From Naegleria gruberi (taxonomy: Eukaryota), in assembly GCA_000004985.1 (NCBI GenBank), contig GG738878.1: a stretch of DNA of 64,000 nucleotides; one strand, written 5' to 3'. The notes below the pieces were generated by a model. The model had not been told where the DNA came from. It did not search any database and saw only the letters and a list, made by a program, of their open reading frames with translations. The position numbers were made by a program, and so were the translations under genes. Of the stretch, positions 24,968 through 63,747 are shown in pieces. Within the stretch, counting starts at the first letter, position 1. Each line of letters starts with the position of its first letter.

Positions 24968-25040
24968 TCCCCCTTAGCTCAGTCGGTAGAGCGTCAGACT
25001 GTTAATCTGCAGGTCGGTGGTTCGAGCCCACCAGGGGGAG
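24968..25040 (+). tRNA. tRNA-Asn (anticodon GUU).
   Basis: Cloverleaf folded by hand. Acceptor TCCCCCT pairs with AGGGGGA, D-arm is GCTC-AGTCGGTA-GAGC, anticodon loop CTGTTAA gives GTT, and the T-arm is GGTGG-TTCGAGC-CCACC. Discriminator is G and no CCA is encoded. Confidence 0.9.
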
Positions 25041-28062: not shown

Positions 28063-29778
28063 TTATAAAGTTTCTGCTTCATCAGCAATGGTTGAGGTAT
28101 CGTCTTCGTCTTCACTGGAGGCAACAGCTGATTCATCATCATCAGCATCATCACCTTCAGGTATTTCGTATAAATCTAATCTGTCTCTGTTTGGATGCTT
28201 CAACAAGACAAATTCGCAATCTTGCTTATTGTTTTCTTGGAGATATCTTTGAACATATTCGATTATGAGTTTAACAACACCCCACATGTTGTACAAATGG
28301 AGTTGAAGTTGATCAGCAAAGTCTTCTGGTCTGTATTTTTCAGTGCCCAAAATAAGGTGAGTCTTTGTAGCCTTTGGTGATTGTCTTGAAACGAAACCGA
28401 GCTTGAATTGCTTGCTTGAGCTCAAAAGGGCTTGAGCAGTCCACTTAGCCATTTTGGCAGAGTTGTTCTTAAATTCAGCCATGATGATTGAGGTCTTTTG
28501 GGATTCCATTGAAGTCTTCCAATCAGCAACATTGTGATATTGATTTTGTTCTGCTGGGAAATATTCATTCAAAACCTTCAATGACATTTCTTCATCACCT
28601 GAAGTTTCCTTAGACAAACCATTGATTTCACATCTTACGAGAAGGTTAATTGAGTCACTTAATTTGAATTCACGATACTTGTAAGCCAAGTTAAAGACAC
28701 CAGTTGAGAATGGAACAGCTTCGTTACCCAATTTCTTAACTTCATCTTCCTTGAAAGCTTGTTTTTGGAGGTAAGCATTGACGAGAGTAGCTTCCTTACT
28801 CAATGAGAATGCAGAGTTGATGGATTGAACATTCTTTTCATCTACTGATGGAGGATTTGATGATGTTTCAGAAACAGAGTGCCACAAGTTAATGTTACGA
28901 CCTTCCAATTTTCTCATATCCAAATAAATCTTTCCTTCACTGACACGAACAGCCATATCCCAAGGAAGTTCGGATTTAGAAGCAGCCATAAGTGTAGCAA
29001 TAGCATCATCAGTGGCAAAAACGTTGGCTTCTGGAGCAGTCTTATTGTTAAGAAGTGGATCTTCTGATGAAGCTGGTGGTTGAAGAATATAACCATTAAG
29101 TTTTTGTGGTTTTTCCAAAGTGAGTGGTTGTTTGGCAGAAGCTCTGTCAAACTTCTTGTCATAGTATCCCAAACTACCACAAATATGACGATCAATTGGT
29201 TCAGGTGTCTTGTATCCTTTACCACTTTCCAATGGTTCTGTTGTAGCCTTCTTCAATGTACCGAATAAGAATTTATCAATCAAGACCCAGCTCTTCTTAA
29301 CCTTGATGGAAGGTTTGTAGTTTTGTGTCTTGGTTTTTTGATAATAGCTAAGTGTGGCCTTCTTTTTCTTTTGTTTGTTTTGCTTGTTTTGTTCTTGGTT
29401 GTAAGCAGCCTTTGGAGGTTGTGATTGTGTAGTAGGTCTTCTCTTGTTTTGATTATAGTTGGTGTAGGATTTTCTTTGACTTTGAGTGTTTGAAACGACC
29501 AAGTTAAAGTCGTCATTAGCACCAGTTACATTGGCAATAGCAGCAGCAACTGAGTGAGTTGTTGTACTTGTTGTTGGAGCCGATTGTTCGCTTGTCCAAT
29601 CAGCAATTTTACCAATACTTATTTTACTAGGAATAATGTGAAATAAATTTGTTGGCAAAGACAAAATTTCTGATTTAGATTGTTCAACAGAAGAGGAAGC
29701 TGGGTGAATAGGACCCCATCCTTCCTTTGATTGTTCGAGCAGAGAAATGGCAGAGAGTAAATCTGATGACGATTGCAT
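28063..29778 (-). CDS. Eukaryotic translation initiation factor 3 subunit D (eIF3d).
   Basis: Collinear matches to eIF3d: SKEGWGP, KIADWT, ANVFATDDAIATLM, NLLVRCEINGL, AEFKNNSAKMAKWT and FKLGFVSR. An acidic D/E C-terminal tail is present as in eIF3d. Confidence 0.9.
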   Translation of the reverse strand: MQSSSDLLSAISLLEQSKEGWGPIHPASSSVEQSKSEILSLPTNLFHIIPSKISIGKIADWTSEQSAPTTSTTTHSVAAAIANVTGANDDFNLVVSNTQSQRKSYTNYNQNKRRPTTQSQPPKAAYNQEQNKQNKQKKKKATLSYYQKTKTQNYKPSIKVKKSWVLIDKFLFGTLKKATTEPLESGKGYKTPEPIDRHICGSLGYYDKKFDRASAKQPLTLEKPQKLNGYILQPPASSEDPLLNNKTAPEANVFATDDAIATLMAASKSELPWDMAVRVSEGKIYLDMRKLEGRNINLWHSVSETSSNPPSVDEKNVQSINSAFSLSKEATLVNAYLQKQAFKEDEVKKLGNEAVPFSTGVFNLAYKYREFKLSDSINLLVRCEINGLSKETSGDEEMSLKVLNEYFPAEQNQYHNVADWKTSMESQKTSIIMAEFKNNSAKMAKWTAQALLSSSKQFKLGFVSRQSPKATKTHLILGTEKYRPEDFADQLQLHLYNMWGVVKLIIEYVQRYLQENNKQDCEFVLLKHPNRDRLDLYEIPEGDDADDDESAVASSEDEDDTSTIADEAETL

Positions 29779-43653: not shown

Positions 43654-43895
43654 AAACAAAACTCACCTCTTGACGCCTCTTTGCAAATCTTTCATATAAC
43701 CGAGTTGCTAATTTTGTAATTATTTAGAAGAATCTCCACCTCAAAGAACTACATTGAGCCCACAACTACTGCTTCGACTCTAGCCAAATTAACACCAACA
43801 AAAAAAAGCACCAAACAAAATGGTTTCCGACACCAATAACAACAATCAGAGTTGTGCACAACAATTGGATCGCCGACAATTTTTTCATTAAGAAT

Positions 43896-46067
43896 ATGGT
43901 AACAAATTTGAACCATTTTATATATGTGAATATGACAAGGAGTGCAGTGGTGGGAATGCTGCAAATTTTGTGTCAAATAAGCTATGGACCTACATTACCT
44001 CTGCATATATTTTCAGTTTATAAGCTTCTAATTTCTACAGTAACTTTTTATTTTAGTAGACCTCTAGCAATTGTTTCTGCATCAATATTTGTTACATTTA
44101 ATGCTGCTGCTCTTGGTATTTCATTTTGGGTGAATTATGATTCATTAACACAAATCGAAAGGGATTACTTTCCTTTTAGATTTATAGAAATGTTGGTAGT
44201 ATTATATAGCGTGTTTATTGGATCAATGCTTTTCTCAATATTCATTACAGATAAGAATAAGCAATATACAGCTCAACAAATTGAAACTACGAAGGAAAAA
44301 ATTATTAGCTCTGAAAAGACAAAATATATTGCCAATTTGAGTCATGAAGCTAGAAATCCTTTGCACGCCATTAGTGGATCTATTTCAATCCTCAAACATA
44401 ATATCCAATCTGAAGAATGTAGTAATCAATGTCCTCACTGCTATGTAACAAATGGTTCTATAGCTGAATTAGTTGAAGACCTGGAAGAAAACACAACATT
44501 ATTGGAGCATATATTCTCGTCTTCATTACAAGTTAGCTCACTTGAAATGGGAAAAGTTGAGTTAAAAGTTGAAGATACTAACATGTTATGTCTAGTTGAA
44601 TCAATTACTAGTGTTTTCTCTCAATTGGCTAAAACCAAACAACTTTCACTTCACAGTTACTTTAATGTAATTAAGGTTCCAATTTTTTTGAGAGCAGATT
44701 CTGTTAGAGTAAGCCAAGTGGTAATGAATCTTATATCTAATGCCATTAAGTACACAGATAAGGGACATATTAAATTGAATTGTGATACTCTGAGTGAAAG
44801 AGAAATTCGCAAACACTTTCCAACAAAAAGTATTGAAGAGTATGAATTTATCAAAATTGAGTGTATAGATACAGGTAAAGGAATCCCTGAAGCACAAGTT
44901 AAGGATCTTTTCAAACCATTTCATGTTGTTGAACAAGGTCAAAAATCTGTTGACAGCTATATTGCTCAAACAGAAAAAATGGCAGAATTCAAAGATATTA
45001 ATGGTGCTAGTATGTTACTCAATACTAGTCGTAGCAATGGCCTCGGATTATCTATATCAAAAATGCTTATTGATAAGATGGAGGGTGATATTATTGTTTC
45101 CAGTAGTTCGAAAGGTACTAACATGACTATCATTTTACCACTGAGAAGGGTTAAGCCAGAAGTATTGAAGGAAGAACTGGTTCAGAAGAATAACAATTAT
45201 TTAACATGTGACAAGATTTTTGAGATTTTGAATGAAGAAAATGAAAGATTGAATATTATAATTATTGATGAGGATAGATTTTTCAGACACATTATGCTCT
45301 CCTATTGGAAGATGTTTAAGAGAGCTGTTCACATTAGTGCAGAGTATAAAACAAGTATAGAATTTTGTGATTCAGAATTAGACAAGGATTTAATGCAAAA
45401 TACCACAGTTATTTTCTGCCCTGAAAAAGATATCAAACATACAGAGTCCAATTTCAAACATGAACGAGTAGTTTTGATTCCAACCATTTGTAGAGGTAGT
45501 CATAGATTATTTTCGGATCGTATCTACCTTTCCAAGCCAGTGAAATTTATAGATTTGTTGGAATTTGTCTATGAACATATTTTTGATAGAACTGCTTCCT
45601 CCACTCATAGACAAAGTGTTGTGGAAATTGAGAAAATACCAAAAATAATGAAAACCAAGTCAGTACCAGTAATTGAAGAATTCAAGAGTGAAAAAAAAGT
45701 TCTTATAGTTGATGACAATCACCTAAATCTTAAAATATTGGAAAAACTCCTTAGAATATTAGGTTTTGAAGACATTGAAGTTGCCCACGATGGTATGGAA
45801 TGCTTCAACAAGTATAAGAAGAAGAATTATGATATTATTTTATTAGATTGCATAATGCCTATTCTAAGTGGAAAAGAATCTTGTGAGCTTATCAGAAACA
45901 TGGAAAAGCAAGAACACCTAGAACATAGAATCCCAATATTAGCAATCACAGCAAATGTTTGGGAAGATAGAGAATCTCTTATATCTCAAGGTTTTGACTC
46001 TGTTATTTACAAACCTATTCAGCTGGAGAAACTACAAGCAGAAATGATGGCTTTATTGGATGATTAA
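43896..46067 (+). CDS. Hybrid sensor histidine kinase. It has an N-terminal multi-TM region, HisKA/HATPase domains and a C-terminal receiver domain.
   Basis: H-box ANLSHEARNPLHAISGSI, N-box MNLISNAIKYT, G1 box IDTGKGIPE and G2 box GLGLSISKMLIDKMEGDI. Receiver domain: VLIVDDNHLNLKIL..DIILLDCIMPILSG..YKPIQ. The first ATG in the GTG-started ORF is at 43896. Confidence 0.85.
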   Translation: MVTNLNHFIYVNMTRSAVVGMLQILCQISYGPTLPLHIFSVYKLLISTVTFYFSRPLAIVSASIFVTFNAAALGISFWVNYDSLTQIERDYFPFRFIEMLVVLYSVFIGSMLFSIFITDKNKQYTAQQIETTKEKIISSEKTKYIANLSHEARNPLHAISGSISILKHNIQSEECSNQCPHCYVTNGSIAELVEDLEENTTLLEHIFSSSLQVSSLEMGKVELKVEDTNMLCLVESITSVFSQLAKTKQLSLHSYFNVIKVPIFLRADSVRVSQVVMNLISNAIKYTDKGHIKLNCDTLSEREIRKHFPTKSIEEYEFIKIECIDTGKGIPEAQVKDLFKPFHVVEQGQKSVDSYIAQTEKMAEFKDINGASMLLNTSRSNGLGLSISKMLIDKMEGDIIVSSSSKGTNMTIILPLRRVKPEVLKEELVQKNNNYLTCDKIFEILNEENERLNIIIIDEDRFFRHIMLSYWKMFKRAVHISAEYKTSIEFCDSELDKDLMQNTTVIFCPEKDIKHTESNFKHERVVLIPTICRGSHRLFSDRIYLSKPVKFIDLLEFVYEHIFDRTASSTHRQSVVEIEKIPKIMKTKSVPVIEEFKSEKKVLIVDDNHLNLKILEKLLRILGFEDIEVAHDGMECFNKYKKKNYDIILLDCIMPILSGKESCELIRNMEKQEHLEHRIPILAITANVWEDRESLISQGFDSVIYKPIQLEKLQAEMMALLDD

Positions 46068-54359: not shown

Positions 54360-57022
54360 TTATTTTTCAGTTAGTGCTAAAGCATAATCCTCACTACAAT
54401 TCTTTTCAGCCATACTCTTCAAGTATTGAGCTCTTCTCTTCAACTCGGCAATATATTTAATGGAGGAATAATCAATAGCGAGTTCTTCTGGTTTGTAAGT
54501 TTCTTTCCATTGTGCATTGAGTCTGTAAATTTCCTCAATTTCTTCAACGGCAGTGTCATACTTTTTATCAAAGAGAGCATCTCTTATTCTCAATAACCTA
54601 TCACTCACCACCTTCTGTGAGGATGTAATATCTTCAATTTCACCGTCGACAGTGTAAACTTCAGTTGGTTTGGATTTACCTTTTAGTCTGACTGAATCGA
54701 CATACATGCAAATAAACTTATTCTTCACAATCTCATAAGTATTGTTGCCGATAAGAATTGGTGTATCATATCTCTTGTTTAACATTTCTAATCTACCAGC
54801 AGTGTTAACAGTGTCACCAATAGCTGTGAAACTGAATCTATCCTTTGATCCAATATTTCCCATCATACAATTACCAGTATTGACACCAACTCTAATCTTG
54901 ACAATTGGAAGATTTTCCTTAATACATTTCGATTTCAATTGGTCAATCTTGTACAAACAAAGAACTGCAGCCCTTGTTCCCTTATAGGCATGGTCTTGTA
55001 CAACTCTTAATGGATTTGAAAACAGACTCATGGTACCATCCCCAATGAATTTATCAATAATACCATCATGTGCCTCAACTGTCTCAGTAATAATATTGAA
55101 ATACTCTGTCAGAATTTTAAGCAAAACAGACAAGCTTGAAGATTCTGAAAACGAAGTAAAATCTGCAATATCAGTAAACATAACAGTTGAATTCGCATTG
55201 GCCATTCCCAACTTGGAAGCATTACCTGTTCTTACAATATCCCTGACAATATCTTTTGGAATATATTTCATAAAACTGTGCAAACCATTCTTCACTGTCT
55301 TGATTGAGGTCTGTAATAGATCGAGTTCATACATGGTCTTAAGGACCTTGGATGGCTTCACTGTATCAACTTCAAGTTTAGAAATCTTGTACATATCTCT
55401 GGAAACTTTCCATATTGATCTTGTAATGAATTGAGTAACAACTATCATTAATAAGGTACCCAGAATAATAAGTATAATAGATACTGATAATAGAGCGGGT
55501 GAACTTGTGAAAATGGTCTTGACGAACCCATAGTCCTCTGTAACAATCACCACAATCCAATCAAGCCCATTATCGGTAATTTGGTGGATAGTAATCTTGC
55601 TGTTACCCACCATGAACATTGAAAAATCTGCATTTGGGTCTAAGCTTTCCTTAATTGTGCTCGTTGGGATAGTAGTAGCAGTTCCCCACATGGACTTTGG
55701 AAGATGGTACAGTATCTTTCGATCTTCCAGCACTGTACAAACCTCTGAGAATACTTCAGTTGTGTTCGAGATGTGATTTCTCACATTGGACGGGTCTTTT
55801 GTTTGCGCATTGAATGAAGAAGATATAATCAAGCCGTGTCTCTCAACAATCAAAACCTTAATAGATATTGTTTGCATATCCTTATTGGCCTCAATAACAT
55901 TAACAAGCGAACTATCAATATTGTACAAATCAAAGTGAGCACCAACAATTTGAGTAACATTTCTTGTCTCGACAGTTCCATTAGGATAGACATAATCCTG
56001 AGTATTAATAAAATCCAACGTTGTGGAAGCTCCCAGTGATGTAGCTCCAATGAATGCGTTGAAAAACACAGGTGACCACATGTAATCTGGATATGTCTTA
56101 GAAAGACCTGCCTTAAACCATGGTCTAATGGTTGGATCGTAGTTTTTGCTGGCCTGCTTTAACATGATTGGTTCATAAAAATCATCTCTCGAATAAATAC
56201 CAACAGTAGCATTATCATCTCTGATTTGAATGGTATCTCGCGTTACACTCTTTTCAATGGCACAATAATTCTTAATACTGTTGCCGTAGTAAAAGATTGA
56301 TGAACTAGGGAAGCTACTCTTGGAAGGTCCAAAGACAGATCTTATCCTCCTGCAAGTGTCATCATAACTATTGGTCAATTTGAAATTTAGTTTGTGGTCC
56401 TGGATCAATATGCCATTTCTCATCGTTTCCAGGATTGTTGGTGCTACATTGATAAAATCCTTGATTTTAGTCACGATATTCTTCTCTCTGATTGTTGTTA
56501 TATTATTAACGGATTGTTCTCCGCTTGAGTAGAACAATAATATTAAGGAACCTATGATGAATAATTATTAACATATATATTATTAAAAACTGTTAACTTA
56601 CCAATGCAAATAGCTGTTTGAAGGAGAAAGACAACGAGAAGAATATTTTGGAGAGTGTGTGGGGCTGGACAACATTCTTTGAAAAACCTTTTCATCTTGC
56701 CTTTCTTTCCCTCAGAGTACCCAAATAAATCATCAAATGTTGAACTTATCGTTGAAATTCCATCTGATTGAAGGCTTAGTGAGGCATGGGATGAAGAATT
56801 TTCTGTATTGGATTGGAAATAGTTTGTTGGTGGGTGTTCATTTGGTTCGCTTGCTGTTGTTGAGGTAATATAGGTATTCGATCTAGAGTTAAAATCACTT
56901 GAAAAGTCTAAACTCCCAGATGATGGATAAATCTTATTATCAAAATAATAAGATGCAGAATTAGATCTGTGTGATCTTGTTTTTGATATCTGCTGATGAA
57001 GAGGTGTTACTTGGGTAACCAT
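54360..57022 (-). CDS. Sensor adenylyl cyclase of the dictyostelid ACG type. Domain order is N-terminal cytosolic tail, signal-anchor, extracellular CHASE-like sensor domain, single TM, then class III cyclase catalytic domain. Two exons on the minus strand: 57022-56602 and 56551-54360.
   Basis: Intron 56552-56601 (GTAAGT..AG, phase 1) joins ..LQTAICIG to SLILLFYSSGEQSV... A hydrophobic anchor follows MKRFFKECC. The extracellular region contains RPWF. A TM helix (LLSVSIILIILGTLLMIVVTQFI) follows. The cyclase core is FTDIADFTSFSE..FIGDGTMSLF..IRVGVNTGNCMMGNIGS..FTAIGDTVNTAGRLE. Confidence 0.8.
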
Positions 57023-57859: not shown

Positions 57860-60610
57860 TTAATCATCAATGCAAATAATCTCTGGTGCATCCGTTTTTG
57901 ACTTTTTGTTTGGTGGTTCAATTGAAGATGAGGGAGCAACTTCTAGTTGAAGTGTCGAATTATTATCTGTTGACTCTTCAGGTGGGGTTCTTCTCTTTTT
58001 CAATAAAGATTCCAGTTTAGTTTTAGCTGCATTGTTAAGTTCGGTTGCCTGTTTCACAAGTCTCTCAGAGATCACAAGTTTTGTTAAAATAATTGATTTC
58101 TGAACTCTTTGTTTCTGTATTTCCCTAATTGGAGCAACCATCGATTCAATGTGTGAAAGTTCCTTAACTAGGCCAGTGATTGAACAAGTTCTCTCTGTTT
58201 CTGACCATAAAAATTGTTTTAGAATCTTACAGTCACTACAAATACATGAAATACTAGATTTCACAGAAAAATTTGGTAGGGGAATAATGAACTTCTTTGT
58301 TCTAATTCCATCATCAATTAAATCAATGCTCCAGTTCAGTAGGATATCTAACTGGTCAGATTTAGGCATAATATTCGAAACAACCTCAATGAGTGGAGCG
58401 ACTAGGGTGCTATAATTCTCTTCTGATGCAACACTAAGAACAACGCGGCATGCTCTAGTAATAAAATCATTCCATGAATGGTTATGGAGCATTCGAATGA
58501 AGGAAGTTGCGAATTTCAAATCAAGGAAACAATCTCGATGGTCATATAACATCCATTCTATCAATAATTCACTCAGAGGTTTACAACTCATTGTTGATAA
58601 CACCATATTCAAACAATTTTCACTTGTCAACCATTTAGAGAATGAAAAACGTAGATTTTTCAATTTTTCAACCCCAATTTGATTTGCAATTTTGATTATC
58701 AATGGAAGGTCCAGCTCTTTGTTTTCATAAGAACCTCTTCCTCTTTGATTTGGAATAGAGTTTTTAGCCAATTCTTTTACAATCAATTTCTCATAGATTG
58801 AGGTGTCCTTCAATAAGTCTATCAACTTTGTAATACTTTCCTTATAACTGGCATACTTATAATAATCTTCCACAATATTTTCTACTACTGTTGAATGCAT
58901 TGAATATGTACATTTTTGTGCAAGTATTATTAATTTTTCAAAGCAGCTGCTATCGTATAAATGGTCATACTTATTGACAGAATACTTTGGCATTGTCATT
59001 TGTATCAACGGCACGTCATTGATTTCAATTAGAGAGCCAATAAATTCCTTCATATATCGTTTTTTACATAAATTTTCGCTAATAGTTTCTCTAAACGGTT
59101 CAATTGTAAAATGAGAAATAAGAGAAGATAAACTTTTTTGGTCTATTCCGATAACCAGTTTTGCCAATTCGACATCATTGAGCTGAATAATAGATTGAAT
59201 TACAACTTTTTCTTCATCACCCCATAAGTAGATGTTTTTCTTGGCCAGCATCTGCTTTACAAATGCAATAGAATTCTCTCTAGAGTTTGACTCTATGAAT
59301 GAAGGTAATATTTTGCTACAAAATGAAAATCCAAACTTGAGGCAAATTCTTTGTTGGCACTTCTTTGGATAAATCATTAGACATGCATTTCTGTATTGCT
59401 TTTCTTTTGTTGACCCCTCATTTCCAGTATTTTCGTTAATGGACTTGTGGAATAGTTTCATGGAAGACAGAGCAGACTTGCAAACAACACTTCTGAAAGG
59501 AACGTCTATTTTACGTTGTTGGGATCCAAAAATATACTCGAGTGATACTTCTGGATCGTCAAAACCTTCCACCTTCCTCTCCATAATTCCTAAATCTAAA
59601 ACAAGGTCTTGATATTCCTCAGCATACCTTTCCAGAATATCGTAAATATTGTAATCAGAACCTTTAAGATTTTCAGGATCCAAACTCTTTTGAGAATATT
59701 GGTGCTGAAATACATACATTCTGTAGAGAGTGTCAACATCTTTTGCATCAGCATTCCACTCAGAAACTATTTGTTGAAGTCTTTTGGCTAATTCTTCATA
59801 ACCTTTAAGTGTTGGCTTACTTTCTTTGTTACCTGAAAAACAAAGGTTATATATCAAACAAACTCTGTAACCAGAATTTACATTCTTAATCATGTGCTCA
59901 CAATCTGCATAAAAAGAAATAAAGTGAGGAGTATATCTAGAAACAGATGCAAAATCATATTCTTCCTCTTCCTCTCCGTGTCTAACTATTATTTCACCTC
60001 CACTATATTCCGAAGGAAGTTGAACAACTAGTGTTCCAAACATTCGTTCTTCCTTTTCCGAATCTTTGTGAAATTGAAAGTGACCTCCCTCTTCATATAC
60101 TAATAGCTTGTATAAATTAGCTGAGAGTCTGAGATGTTTACTAATTCCCAAGCCATCCCTAATTTCATTATCCACTAAACCGTCAATCAAATCATCCCAA
60201 GTTGGATTTGTAATTTCAAATCTTGATGGATCTAATTGCCATGTTTTTCTAACATTTTCATCGTAAATTGTATCCTCTCCTCTTCCATATGGTGCCTTAC
60301 TGCAAAATTGAATTAGCTCTGAAGCACTCCCATTCGACAATGGAAATCCAATTGTTTTAAATTGTTCATTATCCAACTTGAGTTGCAAACCTGGTAAACC
60401 AAAATCGCTGTCCAATGCACCACACTGCGTAAATTTACTTCCTCCCTTGTTTTGAGCATCCAAAATAAATTCTTGTAAATTGTCTGATGTTTTAATGGTA
60501 TCAGCATGAAGTTGAACACAATCATCATAAAAATCGGAACCGTAAGCTTCACAATAGTCACTGTCTGTTTCCGATGATTCTGATGAGGAAGAAACTCTCC
60601 TTCTGGTCAT
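57860..60610 (-). CDS. Large protein with an N-terminal 2OG-Fe(II) oxygenase (prolyl-4-hydroxylase-like, PF13640-type) domain and a 600-aa alpha-helical C-terminal region of unknown function.
   Basis: HxD...H iron triad and flanking strands: LYKLLVYEEGGHFQFHKDSEK..FGTLVVQLPSEYSGGEIIVRHGEE. The remainder has no recognisable motif. The start codon is only 47 bp downstream of the SPO11-like stop. Confidence 0.5.
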   Translation of the reverse strand: MTRRRVSSSSESSETDSDYCEAYGSDFYDDCVQLHADTIKTSDNLQEFILDAQNKGGSKFTQCGALDSDFGLPGLQLKLDNEQFKTIGFPLSNGSASELIQFCSKAPYGRGEDTIYDENVRKTWQLDPSRFEITNPTWDDLIDGLVDNEIRDGLGISKHLRLSANLYKLLVYEEGGHFQFHKDSEKEERMFGTLVVQLPSEYSGGEIIVRHGEEEEEYDFASVSRYTPHFISFYADCEHMIKNVNSGYRVCLIYNLCFSGNKESKPTLKGYEELAKRLQQIVSEWNADAKDVDTLYRMYVFQHQYSQKSLDPENLKGSDYNIYDILERYAEEYQDLVLDLGIMERKVEGFDDPEVSLEYIFGSQQRKIDVPFRSVVCKSALSSMKLFHKSINENTGNEGSTKEKQYRNACLMIYPKKCQQRICLKFGFSFCSKILPSFIESNSRENSIAFVKQMLAKKNIYLWGDEEKVVIQSIIQLNDVELAKLVIGIDQKSLSSLISHFTIEPFRETISENLCKKRYMKEFIGSLIEINDVPLIQMTMPKYSVNKYDHLYDSSCFEKLIILAQKCTYSMHSTVVENIVEDYYKYASYKESITKLIDLLKDTSIYEKLIVKELAKNSIPNQRGRGSYENKELDLPLIIKIANQIGVEKLKNLRFSFSKWLTSENCLNMVLSTMSCKPLSELLIEWMLYDHRDCFLDLKFATSFIRMLHNHSWNDFITRACRVVLSVASEENYSTLVAPLIEVVSNIMPKSDQLDILLNWSIDLIDDGIRTKKFIIPLPNFSVKSSISCICSDCKILKQFLWSETERTCSITGLVKELSHIESMVAPIREIQKQRVQKSIILTKLVISERLVKQATELNNAAKTKLESLLKKRRTPPEESTDNNSTLQLEVAPSSSIEPPNKKSKTDAPEIICIDD

Positions 60611-60657: not shown

Positions 60658-61767
60658 TCACAACACGTTTAAATGTAGTTCTACCTTTGCTGTGATATAA
60701 TCCCAATAATCAATCTCCAAATGATTGAGACCCTCTATTTCGACTTTGTAATTTAAATCTTTTTGTAAATTAATTTGAGTTTTTACAGTGTCATCCAATT
60801 CAAGTTGGGTGTTGTTTAGAGAGTTTATCTTTTTCAAATCCAATTCTTCCAGAGGCATCCAACAATCCTTCCACTTTGAAATCAATTGAGGAGCATTGTC
60901 AAAATCATTCAAATGAACTCCAATCCATGACATTCTGGAACAAGTTTGAAGCACCCAATAATGCCAATCTTCGGTGGAGTCTACACAACTATGGATGGTC
61001 AGATTCTCCTTCTCATTTTCAAATGATAACGAACCATTCATGTAAACATTGGCAATTTCAGCTCCATAAGGATCACCATCTGTGAGTGTGAAAATATTCA
61101 AACTTCTCCTTTGATATTTTGCTACTTGCTTTGTTAGTGTTACAATAAAATCTCTTGTTGGAACATCAGGATATCCCTTAGATGTGATTATTAATGATGT
61201 ATCTTTGAGACTGCTTGCTTGACTTTTCAACACTTGAAAAACTGACTCTTTTTCAACAATGATCACCTTATCTACTTCAACAGGGATAGAGAACTCTACA
61301 ATTTGTAAATGAGGAATCGAAGGAAGATTACACCCTTTAGAAGCACTGACTATAGTTGTTGTTGGTTGTTGTCCTCTATTTTCAATATCAATCAATGAGA
61401 TTTCCTTCCAAGCAATTGGTCCACAAACTTCTCCCTTCGATTGAGGAACAATATGAAGATCATGCCTATTAACTCGCCAACTTGATGATAAATCCTTCAA
61501 TATGGAATCTAGTTGTGTCTGATCTTTTAGAATAGGCTTGTTACAATAATACAAATCTCTCTTGGTTGAAAATTTGTTTAAAGTACACAACTGATACACT
61601 AAATTCATCACCTGAAACTTGGAAATAAATGTTGATGGATATTTGGTCAGATCTTTCAGCAAGAAGCCTTTTTCATTCGGAATATCAGATGATGGTGATG
61701 AAACTAATTCCCTCACAAAGGCTAAAACTTTCTCCTCAATTCTTTCTCTCACTTGAATTGTTTCCAT
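60658..61767 (-). CDS. SPO11: SPO11/topoisomerase VI subunit A homolog (meiotic DNA double-strand-break transesterase family). Single 369-aa ORF.
   Basis: All family motifs are in the correct order and spacing: catalytic 5Y-CAP tyrosine TKRDLYYCN; Toprim glutamate IIVEKESVFQ; SKGYPDVPTRDF; DxD metal site LTDGDPYGAEIANVY; and a C-terminal KVEIEGL motif. No introns are needed. Confidence 0.8.
   Translation of the reverse strand: METIQVRERIEEKVLAFVRELVSSPSSDIPNEKGFLLKDLTKYPSTFISKFQVMNLVYQLCTLNKFSTKRDLYYCNKPILKDQTQLDSILKDLSSSWRVNRHDLHIVPQSKGEVCGPIAWKEISLIDIENRGQQPTTTIVSASKGCNLPSIPHLQIVEFSIPVEVDKVIIVEKESVFQVLKSQASSLKDTSLIITSKGYPDVPTRDFIVTLTKQVAKYQRRSLNIFTLTDGDPYGAEIANVYMNGSLSFENEKENLTIHSCVDSTEDWHYWVLQTCSRMSWIGVHLNDFDNAPQLISKWKDCWMPLEELDLKKINSLNNTQLELDDTVKTQINLQKDLNYKVEIEGLNHLEIDYWDYITAKVELHLNVL
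60698..60775. repeat. Copy of a short repeat that overlaps the 3' coding end of the SPO11-like gene (paired with 43590-43653).
   Basis: See the paired feature. The reverse complement of this copy encodes the C-terminal ..TQINLQKDLNYKVEIEGLNHLEIDYWD.. of the SPO11-like protein. Confidence 0.6.
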
Positions 61768-61820: not shown

Positions 61821-62441
61821 TTATTGGGTTGGTTTTGACTTAGCAGCAAGAAGTTTTACTCTTCTGTTATATTCTTCACGATTAGTGACATAGAGATGGA
61901 AAGGTTCAGCTTGAGCAGGATCCTTTTCGTTAGGATTATCCAACAATTCTTGAATACCTAAAAGTAATTGTTTGACAGTGAGAGAAGGCTTCCAATCCTT
62001 ATCTTCATTCAAAATACTCAAACAAACAGTACCACTTGGGAAAATGTTTGGATGGAAAAGTGGTGGTACAAATTTACACTTTGGAGGCTTGTCTGGATAT
62101 TCATCAGGGAATTCAATATCTAATCTATATTCACCTCCTTCCCATATTGTACCTGGTTTACCTGGGATACCACAATTCCATACCATTACATTAGTTGTTC
62201 CGTCTTCTTGTTGTTGAGGTCTGGCCCAGAAACCCTGTTATTGTTGTTGTTGTTAATTTTCATCACACAATTTTGTCAATTATTGTCATCATTAAAATCA
62301 ATTTAATTATTTGGTGATCGGAAGAAAATATTCTTTATATATCGATATTAAATTACACCTCAAAACAATACATACATAAGGGTGGTCCTTTCTCCAGTTC
62401 TTTCTCTCTTCCATAACTCTCTTTCTAGCGATGGAGGACAT
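61821..62441 (-). CDS. UBC9: SUMO-conjugating enzyme UBC9 (E2). Two exons on the minus strand: 62441-62376 and 62234-61821.
   Basis: Exon 1 [22 protein letters not shown] ends at a GTATGT donor. Intron 62235-62375 has an ACAG acceptor. Exon 2 is [126 protein letters not shown].. It is near-identical in motif content to UBC9 from animals and fungi, including the HPN and active-site Cys. Confidence 0.9.
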
Positions 62442-62827
62442 TTTGTTCAATTTTTGCTTTTTTTTAAATTTTTGAAAACAATTTTTATTTTTATTAAAAA
62501 ATTGCATGGCGCGGATTTCTACAAGCTTCCTGCTCAACATTCAGCAGAGAACAATGTTATTTGTTTAATGACGAATTCATCATCTGTGCTACCAAAGAAT
62601 TAATAACAAGGATTTAATTGTGTGGAAACAATTATTTTCTTCCACTATTTAGTGTAAGAGAATAATAATAGAGAAGAACAAAACGTGATTGTATTAACAT
62701 TGATGGATTTTCAACCACATGACTATGAAATTGGTTATCATGAAATTCCGAGAACCCTCTCATAGAATATTTTCTCTAGATTTTGAATTGGTGGGCAGAA
62801 TAGAAGTGCCAACAGGTTACTATTTGG

Positions 62828-63193
62828 ATGTTAGTCTCACAAGTACATAATGCATTGGTTGTTGGTCGGGGTGATAATTTGATTTTCTTTGATTTGCAAT
62901 CAAAAAAGCTATTATTTCATTACACCATTCGTCTAAAAATTCAAAATTTGATAATTAAGGAAAATGATTTGTTCATTGTTTGCTCAGACTACTGTTTGAG
63001 GAGCCTTAATTTTCCAAGGTCTTCAAAAAAACAGGTATCACCAAAAGAGGGACAGAGTTTTTATTCAATATTCTATGACGAGGATAGCCACCGAATTTTT
63101 GTTACTAATTCCTCTAACGTATTTGTGTTTGATAGAGAGCTTAACATGTTGAAATCATTTGCTTTGGGTTCAAGATTGGATTGTATGGAGTGA
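62828..63193 (+). CDS. Hypothetical small protein. The ORF is initiated at TTG in the track, the true start is unresolved, and it is possibly part of a larger spliced gene.
   Basis: 121-codon ORF with a beta-strand-rich, WD/propeller-like composition (..LVVGRGDNLIFFDLQSKKLLFHYTIRLKIQNLIIKENDLFIVCSD..). No clear motif. Confidence 0.3.
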   Translation: MLVSQVHNALVVGRGDNLIFFDLQSKKLLFHYTIRLKIQNLIIKENDLFIVCSDYCLRSLNFPRSSKKQVSPKEGQSFYSIFYDEDSHRIFVTNSSNVFVFDRELNMLKSFALGSRLDCME

Positions 63194-63339
63194 GAATTGA
63201 CCCAAAAACAGGATATTGTTATTTGTGTGAAAGTACTGATGGCACAATTTCAATTTTCAAATAAGTTTTTGTTGTAATTTTTGTAATGAGTTCTCAACAT
63301 GAACTTTGGTGTATGCATGACACGAAACATCAAAAAAAA

Positions 63340-63570
63340 ATGCAAATACAAGTCAGAACATTATCAGGAGGTTACCTCAAGTTTGATTTGGAAAATTCAG
63401 ATAAAATAATATATTTGAAGAAACTCATTGAGGAAAAGATTGGATTTAGCATTGTCAATCTACGATTAGTATATAATGGAAAGATTCTCCCAGACGATTC
63501 CTCAATAATCGATACTGGCTTAAAGAATGGTGATATCATTCATCTCACTCCCCAATTAAAAGGAGGTTGA
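63340..63570 (+). CDS. Stand-alone 76-aa ubiquitin-fold protein ending in Gly-Gly immediately before the stop codon. It is a divergent ubiquitin/NEDD8-like modifier candidate.
   Basis: MQIQVRTLSGGYLKFDLENSDKIIYLKKLIEEKIGFSIVNLRLVYNGKILPDDSSIIDTGLKNGDIIHLTPQLKGG. It has the same length and beta-grasp register as ubiquitin and is about 30-35% identical by eye (MQIxVxTLxG, SDxI, KxxIxxKxG, RLxxxGKxLxD, HLxxxLxGG). The ATG at 63340 is preceded by an A9 run. The longer ORF starts upstream at 63286. Confidence 0.6.
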   Translation: MQIQVRTLSGGYLKFDLENSDKIIYLKKLIEEKIGFSIVNLRLVYNGKILPDDSSIIDTGLKNGDIIHLTPQLKGG

Positions 63571-63747
63571 ATGCTTCTCATTCTTACTGTACAAGTTCAA
63601 TAAAAAGAAGCTTTTACAATCATAGAATGTGAATAGCAACACACTATTCCATCCAAACATGTATTTCATTGACCGGAACTCTTCTAGGAAACTCCTCCAA
63701 TTACTCCATCATAAGAACTCCTAAAGATTGAGAAGAAAAGAGCAAAA

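Follow-up and report, generated by a model that had tools for sequence, protein, structure and literature searches.

A fast-evolving, stand-alone ubiquitin/NEDD8-type gene of Naegleria gruberi whose product ends at Gly-Gly

The stretch of Naegleria gruberi DNA analyzed here (64,000 nucleotides of contig GG738878.1, assembly GCA_000004985.1), hereafter the window, provides all the N. gruberi genomic data used in this work. It carries at 63286-63570, on the plus strand, a 94-codon open reading frame (ORF) in which an earlier examination of the letters alone (the sequence-only reading) had recognized an unfused 76-aa ubiquitin/NEDD8-like protein ending in GG. The ORF itself, the Pfam match, the ungapped alignment with known modifiers and the predicted fold all bear out this description. 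The present analysis shows that the 3′ part of this ORF (Table 1) is a real, selected and most likely functional stand-alone gene encoding a 76-residue ubiquitin-like protein (UBL), MQIQVRTLSGGYLKFDLENSDKIIYLKKLIEEKIGFSIVNLRLVYNGKILPDDSSIIDTGLKNGDIIHLTPQLKGG, which starts at the second-to-last in-frame ATG.

Two in-frame ATGs, and no stop codon, are found in the 18 codons that precede the UBL; the sequence-only reading had noticed the first of them but not the second. The 76-aa form, rather than the product of the whole 94-codon ORF, is retained here because the relatives described below share the Met1 start and keep the xQLKGG end. Upstream of the start, the DNA shows 33% identity to that of the closest relative (metagenome contig L001) and cannot be aligned with it, the 18-codon extension being therefore not conserved. 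Furthermore, in five of the six relative loci the segment running from the upstream stop to Met1 contains no ATG in frame; this stop lies eight codons before Met1 in L001 and three codons before it in Willaertia magna. The retained ATG is directly preceded by eight A; the nine initially counted included the A of the ATG itself. Such a context is ordinary: 21 other start codons of the window were checked, and a run of at least five A directly precedes 13 of them, the mean being 6.3 A at positions -10 to -1. The ATG at 63340 matches this genome start pattern, whereas the context of the one at 63286 (TTTTTGTA) is atypical. The A-run is thus the usual start context and no poly(A) relic, which eliminates the retrocopy that had been proposed. 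Two peptides, ILPDDSSIIDTGLK and NGDIIHLTPQLK, can serve as targets for detection of the 76-aa product in proteomes.

Membership of the ubiquitin (beta-grasp) family is indicated by profile and fold prediction. The 76-aa sequence matches the Pfam ubiquitin profile PF00240 (E=3.6e-14) with 52.7 bits for a curated cut-off of 25.4, over profile positions 1-67 of 72, and its match to Rad60-SLD is far weaker (E=8e-7). Residues 1-76 align without any gap to ubiquitin and NEDD8 of the PDB, with 27/76 (35.5%) and 28/76 (36.8%) identical residues, respectively, in agreement with the one third estimated by the sequence-only reading. The AlphaFold2 model, obtained with six family sequences, is a beta-grasp (pLDDT 87.6, falling over the final residues) whose predicted strands (2-6, 12-16, 41-45 and 66-71) and helices (23-34 and 56-59) would fit the beta-beta-alpha-beta-beta-(3-10)-beta fold; Foldseek gives TM values of 0.87-0.93 between this model and ubiquitin and NEDD8. 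The best 60 PDB matches are all ubiquitin (engineered ubiquitin-derived variants included) or NEDD8/RUB1, and none is a SUMO. When the N. gruberi sequence is used alone, the PDB scores are 51.4 bits for RUB1, 47.7 for NEDD8 and 35.4 for ubiquitin, the best single-domain match being Arabidopsis RUB1.

Relatives of this protein, collected by word-seeded profile searches plus cluster look-ups, are encoded by N. fowleri, N. lovaniensis, W. magna and protist metagenome contigs and are 49-75% identical to it. Judging from these sequences, the family comprises heteroloboseans (the vahlkampfiids Naegleria and Willaertia) and unidentified protist contigs, and shares the C-terminus xQLKGG; the lineage-specific character suggested by the sequence-only reading therefore holds so far. 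The closest relative, P0001 (78 aa, ending LKGGSL), is encoded by the ENA metagenome contig L001 and is 75% identical to the N. gruberi protein. The A-type proteins (N. fowleri FDP41_010889, N. lovaniensis C9374_012794, W. magna ABK040_002648 and several metagenome proteins) have 78 aa and end with LILQLKGG followed by CF, CL or RF; they show 54-59% identity to the N. gruberi protein, whereas the identity between Naegleria and Willaertia A-type proteins reaches 84%. Second paralogues are W. magna ABK040_003816 (82 aa) and P0157 (80 aa, ending LMLMLKGGTCYS). The D-type proteins (P0158-P0162 and P0169), from unidentified protist contigs, have 74-140 aa as called but about 77-78 aa from Met1; their full-length members have 1-2-residue tails and 45-49% identity to human NEDD8 (34-49% for the family as a whole), and some of them are labeled 'ubiquitin-like protein Nedd8' by the JGI pipeline. 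In public records, the N. fowleri, N. lovaniensis and W. magna proteins (78-82 aa), each encoded by a separate short gene at its own locus, are labeled hypothetical or 'ubiquitin-like domain-containing'.

All the members are stand-alone proteins starting at a Met aligned to ubiquitin Met1, and Gly75-Gly76 is kept in every full-length one. Gly10, Asp21, Lys27, Glu32, Lys33, Gly35, Leu43, Val44, Gly47, Asp52, Asp53, Leu69, Leu73 and Lys74 are invariant in the family, and residue 72 is Gln in all members except P0157 (Met). Residues 31-32 are Glu-Glu in N. gruberi and D-type proteins and Gln-Glu in A-type proteins; since the A-type relatives carry Gln31, Glu31 is a derived state in N. gruberi. 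A neighbor-joining (NJ) tree groups N. gruberi with P0001 (92% bootstrap) and supports family monophyly with respect to human NEDD8 and ubiquitin (87%), but leaves the N. gruberi/P0001 pair either as A-type orthologues or as a separate paralogue. The run from which P0157 originates (SRR29240419) yields a contig, L008, that is 99.98% identical to N. fowleri VFQX01000007.1; this amoeba thus encodes two paralogues, one of them unannotated. The P0157 gene is located at L005 10001-10243 (Logan SRR29240419) and at L006 3878-4120, between genes encoding a Sey1/RHD3 GTPase and Ist1, and its protein is absent from NCBI, UniRef and other named sources.

An exhaustive HMMER search of 1.84 billion representatives with a two-sequence profile gave only polyubiquitins among its best 150 matches, their repeats summing to high scores. 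A metagenome scan returned only a near-canonical ubiquitin, unrelated to the QLKGG family, at L002 828-1073 (JGI Ga0172367_10044797). This ubiquitin has a two-residue N-terminal and a three-residue C-terminal extension (MTMQIQVRTLTGK...LRLRGGVDF); it lies in an AT-rich contig with dense small ORFs and probably comes from a giant virus.

The C-terminus is where N. gruberi differs from all other members. In all 13 full-length relatives, one to six residues follow the GG (P0160 is truncated at LK). From Gly75 onwards, the codons are GGA GGA TGT TTT TAA in N. fowleri, GGA GGT TGT TTT TAA in W. magna, GGA GGT TCT TTG TAA in L001 and GGA GGT TGA in N. gruberi. Since the N. gruberi TGA is aligned with a TGT (Cys77) of both N. 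fowleri and W. magna, these codons indicate that the tail-less end is a derived, species-specific state due to a single-base change. This loss should be harmless because the tail is cleaved from ubiquitin-type precursors anyway. Therefore, the modifier needing no C-terminal maturation that had been envisaged by the sequence-only reading would exist in N. gruberi only: every relative has a tail, so that this state is local and not a property of the family. It has precedents, since PfNEDD8 has 76 aa and no tail while the NEDD8s of rodent and avian Plasmodium are tailed (PMC7677368), and URM1, ATG12 and FAT10 are also made in their mature form (PMC7677368, PMC7600729). Incorporation of selenocysteine at the TGA aligned with Cys77 was considered and rejected: no SECIS was found by a scan of the whole window at Rfam gathering thresholds, which matched only one tRNA, the downstream sequence MLLILTVQVQ* has no counterpart, and position 77 is Ser or Arg elsewhere.

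Comparison with L001 reveals that the gene is under selection. The coding sequences share 76% of their nucleotides (61% at third positions, 83-84% at first and second positions), whereas the flanks cannot be aligned, and the Nei-Gojobori estimates are dN 0.18, dS 0.95 and dN/dS 0.19. When 55 random substitutions were placed on L001 in 20,000 replicates, they caused a mean of 36 aa changes and never fewer than 25, compared to the 19 observed; only 5% of the replicates remained free of stop codons. Both this dN/dS, far from the value of about 1 expected by the sequence-only reading for a pseudogene, and the failure of all replicates to reach the observed protein conservation rule out the decaying pseudogene or retrocopy that it had considered. 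However, this copy evolves faster than its relatives. The A-type pair N. fowleri/W. magna has a dN/dS of 0.04 and, with A-type outgroups, the nonsynonymous branch lengths are 0.14-0.15 (N. gruberi) and 0.03-0.04 (P0001), which corresponds to a 4-6 times higher nonsynonymous rate on the N. gruberi branch than on its sister. Among the 19 differences to P0001 (alignment A3), 10 are derived in N. gruberi (including Q31E, Q40N, Q41L, Q68H, I70T and L71P), one is derived in P0001 and eight are ambiguous. With dS split evenly between the two branches, a rough omega of about 0.3 is obtained for that of N. gruberi. Overall, the N. gruberi copy is relaxed or accelerated, yet still under purifying selection.

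Table 1. Features of the UBL gene and of other parts of the 64-kb window
Feature	Position	Strand	Basis or remark
UBL coding sequence, 76 aa, TGA included	63340-63570	+	ORF, Pfam PF00240, alignments, relatives, dN/dS
Upstream in-frame 18 codons, ATGs at 63286 and 63313	63286-63339	+	most likely untranslated leader or intergenic DNA
A8 run directly 5′ of the start codon	63332-63339	+	usual N. gruberi start context
Codons 31-32, Glu-Glu, the NEDD8 state (Gln-Asp in ubiquitin)	63430-63435	+	sequence, PMC7677368
Codon 72, Gln, non-basic (Arg in ubiquitin, Ala in canonical NEDD8)	63553-63555	+	family alignment
Codon 74, Lys in all family members (Arg74 in ubiquitin and NEDD8)	63559-63561	+	family alignment
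Gly75-Gly76 codons GGA GGT (63562-63567), then TGA (63568-63570)	63562-63570	+	stop at the relatives' first tail codon
AATAAA, polyadenylation-signal-like hexamer, 29 nt past the stop	63599-63604	+	pattern scan; candidate only
UBC9, exons 62376-62441 and 61821-62234, 141-nt GT-AG intron	61821-62441	-	spliced model
Spo11/Top6A homologue	60658-61767	-	
916-aa 2OG-oxygenase-like ORF	57860-60610	-	
Adenylate/guanylate cyclase	54360-56537	-	
Hybrid histidine kinase with receiver domain	43854-46067	+	
VPS13, 3176 aa	32550-42080	-	
eIF3d ORF	28063-29778	-	
tRNA gene	24968-25040	+	

The gene appears to be missing from the public N. gruberi annotation, since a collection of 15 billion proteins that includes the N. 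gruberi proteome contains neither of the two sequences (76 and 94 aa), and no protein of this species was among the matches of three homology searches. The eIF3d ORF of the same window is identical to N. gruberi XP_002675413.1/EFC42669.1. Exact look-ups of the 76-aa and 94-aa sequences and of the neighboring Spo11 and eIF3d in assembled public data (SRA/ENA) gave no contig at all and are thus uninformative on transcription. Such an omission has a precedent, as Gcp4, a small ubiquitin-related gene of N. gruberi, is 'unannotated' in the supplementary data of PMC8134430. The available portion of the literature on Naegleria NEDD8 and neddylation contains no paper on Naegleria NEDD8 or on the QLKGG family.

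By its architecture, i.e. a stand-alone form with a flexible end at a Gly-Gly that is free or followed by a short tail, and given its strong purifying selection, the protein looks like a type-I (conjugatable) modifier. It is probably of NEDD8 type, either the heterolobosean NEDD8 itself or a NEDD8-derived paralogue using the same machinery. The enzymes of the two pathways tell ubiquitin and NEDD8 apart by positions 31, 32 and 72: ubiquitin has Gln31-Asp32 and Arg72, whereas NEDD8 has Glu31-Glu32 (Gln-Glu in some apicomplexans), which is important in cullin neddylation, and Ala, Thr or, in apicomplexans, Gln at position 72 (PMC7677368). The N. gruberi protein has the NEDD8 states at residues 31-32 and at residue 72 (non-basic). 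Furthermore, PfNEDD8, which also has Gln72 and no tail, reportedly forms conjugates with cullins and complements a yeast rub1-delta strain (PMC7677368). Cullins and COP9 signalosome subunits are present in Naegleria (PMC9928731, PMC7531848, PMC4860701), which should therefore have a NEDD8. In the mechanism that we propose, an E1 would adenylate the carboxylate of Gly76 and form a thioester with it, before its transfer to an E2 and its attachment to lysines of targets, most likely cullins. Because of Gln72 instead of Arg and of Glu at 32 (31-32 in N. gruberi), the predicted E1 is NAE1-UBA3 and not the ubiquitin E1, and the predicted E2 is of UBC12 type. The tails of the relatives would be removed by a UCH/DEN1-type hydrolase, a step that the N. 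gruberi protein, whose primary product would already be mature, would bypass.

Comparison with known systems specifies these similarities and their limits. Like NEDD8/RUB1, and especially PfNEDD8, the N. gruberi protein is a 76-residue stand-alone beta-grasp that aligns without gap, ends with GG and has Glu31-Glu32 and a non-basic residue 72; Leu8, Lys27, Lys33, Arg42, Lys48 and Leu73 are also kept and, as for PfNEDD8 and some other Plasmodium NEDD8s, the tail is absent while sister species have one (PMC7677368). It differs from NEDD8 by an identity to the human protein of only 37%, and its family by Lys74 instead of Arg, Val44 instead of Ile, mostly Gln at 68 and several paralogues per genome. 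It shares with ubiquitin the fold, length, ungapped alignment, Met1, Leu8, Lys48, Gly-Gly and PF00240, but has Gln72 instead of the Arg72 needed by ubiquitin E1 and is neither a polyubiquitin nor a ribosomal fusion; the low identity (35.5%), Gln72 and the single unfused unit rule out ubiquitin proper. The A-type proteins of N. fowleri, N. lovaniensis and W. magna have the same length to Gly76 and the same QLKGG end but differ by a two-residue tail (CF or RF), Gln31, Gln40-Gln41, Ile70-Leu71 and a very strong conservation. The primary products of URM1, ATG12 and FAT10 also end at the conjugating glycine (PMC7600729), but these belong to unrelated subfamilies with other folds, lengths and enzymes, and their lack of tail is a family trait whereas it concerns here a single species. 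Gcp4, which is linked to mitochondrial type II secretion (PMC8134430), is likewise small, unannotated, of the ubiquitin superfamily and present in few protist lineages; however, it has 69 aa, no Gly-Gly terminus and no detectable similarity to the UBL (no BLASTP alignment at E<=100), so that the two are not the same protein.

Several observations weigh against orthology with NEDD8. With the family profile, the scores become about equal (71.1 bits for RUB1, 65-68 for NEDD8 and 65-69 for ubiquitin), and, of 32 positions that differ between ubiquitin and NEDD8, only 4-9 show the NEDD8 state in family members. Most of the residues that we take to be specific of the NEDD8 surface (K4, E12, E14, R25 and R29) are not conserved in alignment A3. 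N. fowleri and W. magna have two paralogues each, which would fit a lineage-specific expansion. Naegleria proteins usually evolve slowly. With such conservative proteins, a NEDD8 of only 37-49% identity would be unusual, so that the genome may encode a canonical NEDD8 at another locus. Naegleria ubiquitin, for its part, is near-canonical, with about three differences from the human protein (PMC9741609). Against a function of the N. gruberi copy stand its substitutions at nearly invariant residues (Q40N, Q41L, I70T and L71P); moreover, neither exact SRA/ENA look-ups nor the data of PMC8134430 gave transcript or peptide evidence for this copy.

Some of these points would also fit a possible, though clearly less probable, explanation in which the family is a third, lineage-specific ubiquitin-type modifier of heteroloboseans, existing beside ubiquitin and a canonical NEDD8 and having its own or shared E1 and E2 and its own targets. 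At the profile level, the family lies as far from ubiquitin as from NEDD8; its monophyly is supported in the NJ tree, two paralogues occur in both N. fowleri and W. magna, and the Q72-L73-K74 motif of the family is conserved and unique; the presence elsewhere of a canonical NEDD8 is made plausible by the conservative nature of Naegleria proteins. A Naegleria pangenome table also gives two UBA1-type E1s per genome, and Gcp4 is another unannotated, private small UBL of the N. gruberi genome (PMC8134430). The QLKGG paralogues might thus, tentatively, form a third system, perhaps with a second UBA1-like E1, in which the N. gruberi member would be independent of processing and fast-diverging. However, no named canonical Naegleria NEDD8 was found in the accessible part of the literature and supplements, Gln72 and Glu32 are the states of experimentally validated divergent NEDD8s (PMC7677368), and the identity of D-type proteins to human NEDD8 is near the 46-52% reported for PfNEDD8. 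For these reasons, a NEDD8-type modifier is preferred here.

The fast evolution of the N. gruberi copy could, on the other hand, be that of a decaying or functionally relaxed duplicate that has kept an open frame but lost conjugation. Its long nonsynonymous branch, its derived residues at nearly invariant positions, the stop gained right after the GG, the absence of annotation and of any exact-match gene call in SRA/ENA assemblies, and a local gene order unlike that of the N. fowleri locus go in this direction. Nevertheless, this seems improbable for an intact ORF whose start, GG and stop are all in register, with a typical start context and an AATAAA past the stop: both the overall dN/dS and the branch omega are well under 1, few neutral simulated copies stay free of stop codons and none is as conserved at the protein level, and the tail that was lost is one that is cleaved anyway. 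Even less credible is that the UBL is only a domain of a larger protein, either a 94-aa product starting at 63286, as the sequence-only reading had envisaged, or a 3′ exon spliced to upstream plus-strand frames. The two upstream ATGs are in frame without any intervening stop, and these upstream frames end 75 nt before the ATG, but the relatives start at the aligned Met1, five of the six loci lack an upstream in-frame ATG, the 18-codon extension is not conserved, and the relatives, whose upstream neighbors are unrelated, are called as separate genes of 78-82 aa.

What is new in this work is an unannotated, fast-evolving member of the ubiquitin/NEDD8 type; its exact GG end has published precedents. 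The N. gruberi annotation gains a missing gene, the pathogen N. fowleri is found to have a second paralogue that was not annotated, and a conserved, uncharacterized ubiquitin/NEDD8-type family of heteroloboseans is defined. If this protein is the NEDD8 of the lineage, it would be, after Apicomplexa, a second independent case of a Gln72 NEDD8 with species dropping the precursor tail and would inform the evolution of E1 gating and precursor processing, in a neddylation/COP9 pathway that is considered as an amoeba drug target. If it is an additional modifier, a lineage of free-living protists would have a new conjugation pathway. In either case, because of Lys74, Lys-C should leave a Gly-Gly remnant on substrates of the QLKGG modifier but not on those of the Arg74-containing ubiquitin and NEDD8, which offers a possible specific route to the mapping of its substrates.

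The gene next to the UBL encodes a genuine SUMO E2, since its spliced model has a full-length match of 233 bits to human UBC9 and the next E2 family scores 127 bits. As claimed by the sequence-only reading, it is on the opposite strand at about 0.9 kb (899 bp from ATG to ATG); however, the two genes are divergent, so that the UBL faces the 5′ end of UBC9 and does not lie downstream. Neither UBC9 nor Spo11 is found near the UBL in any of the six relative loci, and the adjacency looks fortuitous. A functional link with this orthodox UBC9 was therefore rejected, as was a SUMO identity of the UBL itself, given its PDB matches to ubiquitin, NEDD8 and RUB1, its weak Rad60-SLD match and this unconserved adjacency.

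The order UBL, acyltransferase (PF01553), with TTI1 nearby, is common to the N. fowleri and W. magna loci; the gene located downstream of the UBL in the window (ATG 63757) is not this acyltransferase. However, the 916-aa ORF of the window has a collinear homologue in W. magna (L003 12166-15150), which is the second gene downstream of its UBL, about 2 kb away (four collinear tblastx segments, E=6e-30). This partial microsynteny is in favor of an orthologous relationship between the N. gruberi gene and the A-type, and the window shows no synteny with the locus of the second W. magna paralogue. In the 916-aa ORF itself, the match to a 2OG-Fe(II) oxygenase domain is weak (E=7e-5, under the Pfam cut-off); the W. 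magna homologue has Ras/Roc domains as well.

Between UBC9 and the UBL, overlapping plus-strand frames that look like a beta-propeller (62719-62850, 62828-63193 and about 63189-63264) occupy 62719-63264. They leave no space for ordinary introns, and their joined translation has no Pfam match; they could correspond to a decayed gene, to very short introns or to assembly frameshifts. On the other side of UBC9, tail-to-head with it and about 50 bp apart, lies the Spo11/Top6A homologue, a meiosis gene in an organism in which no sex has been observed.

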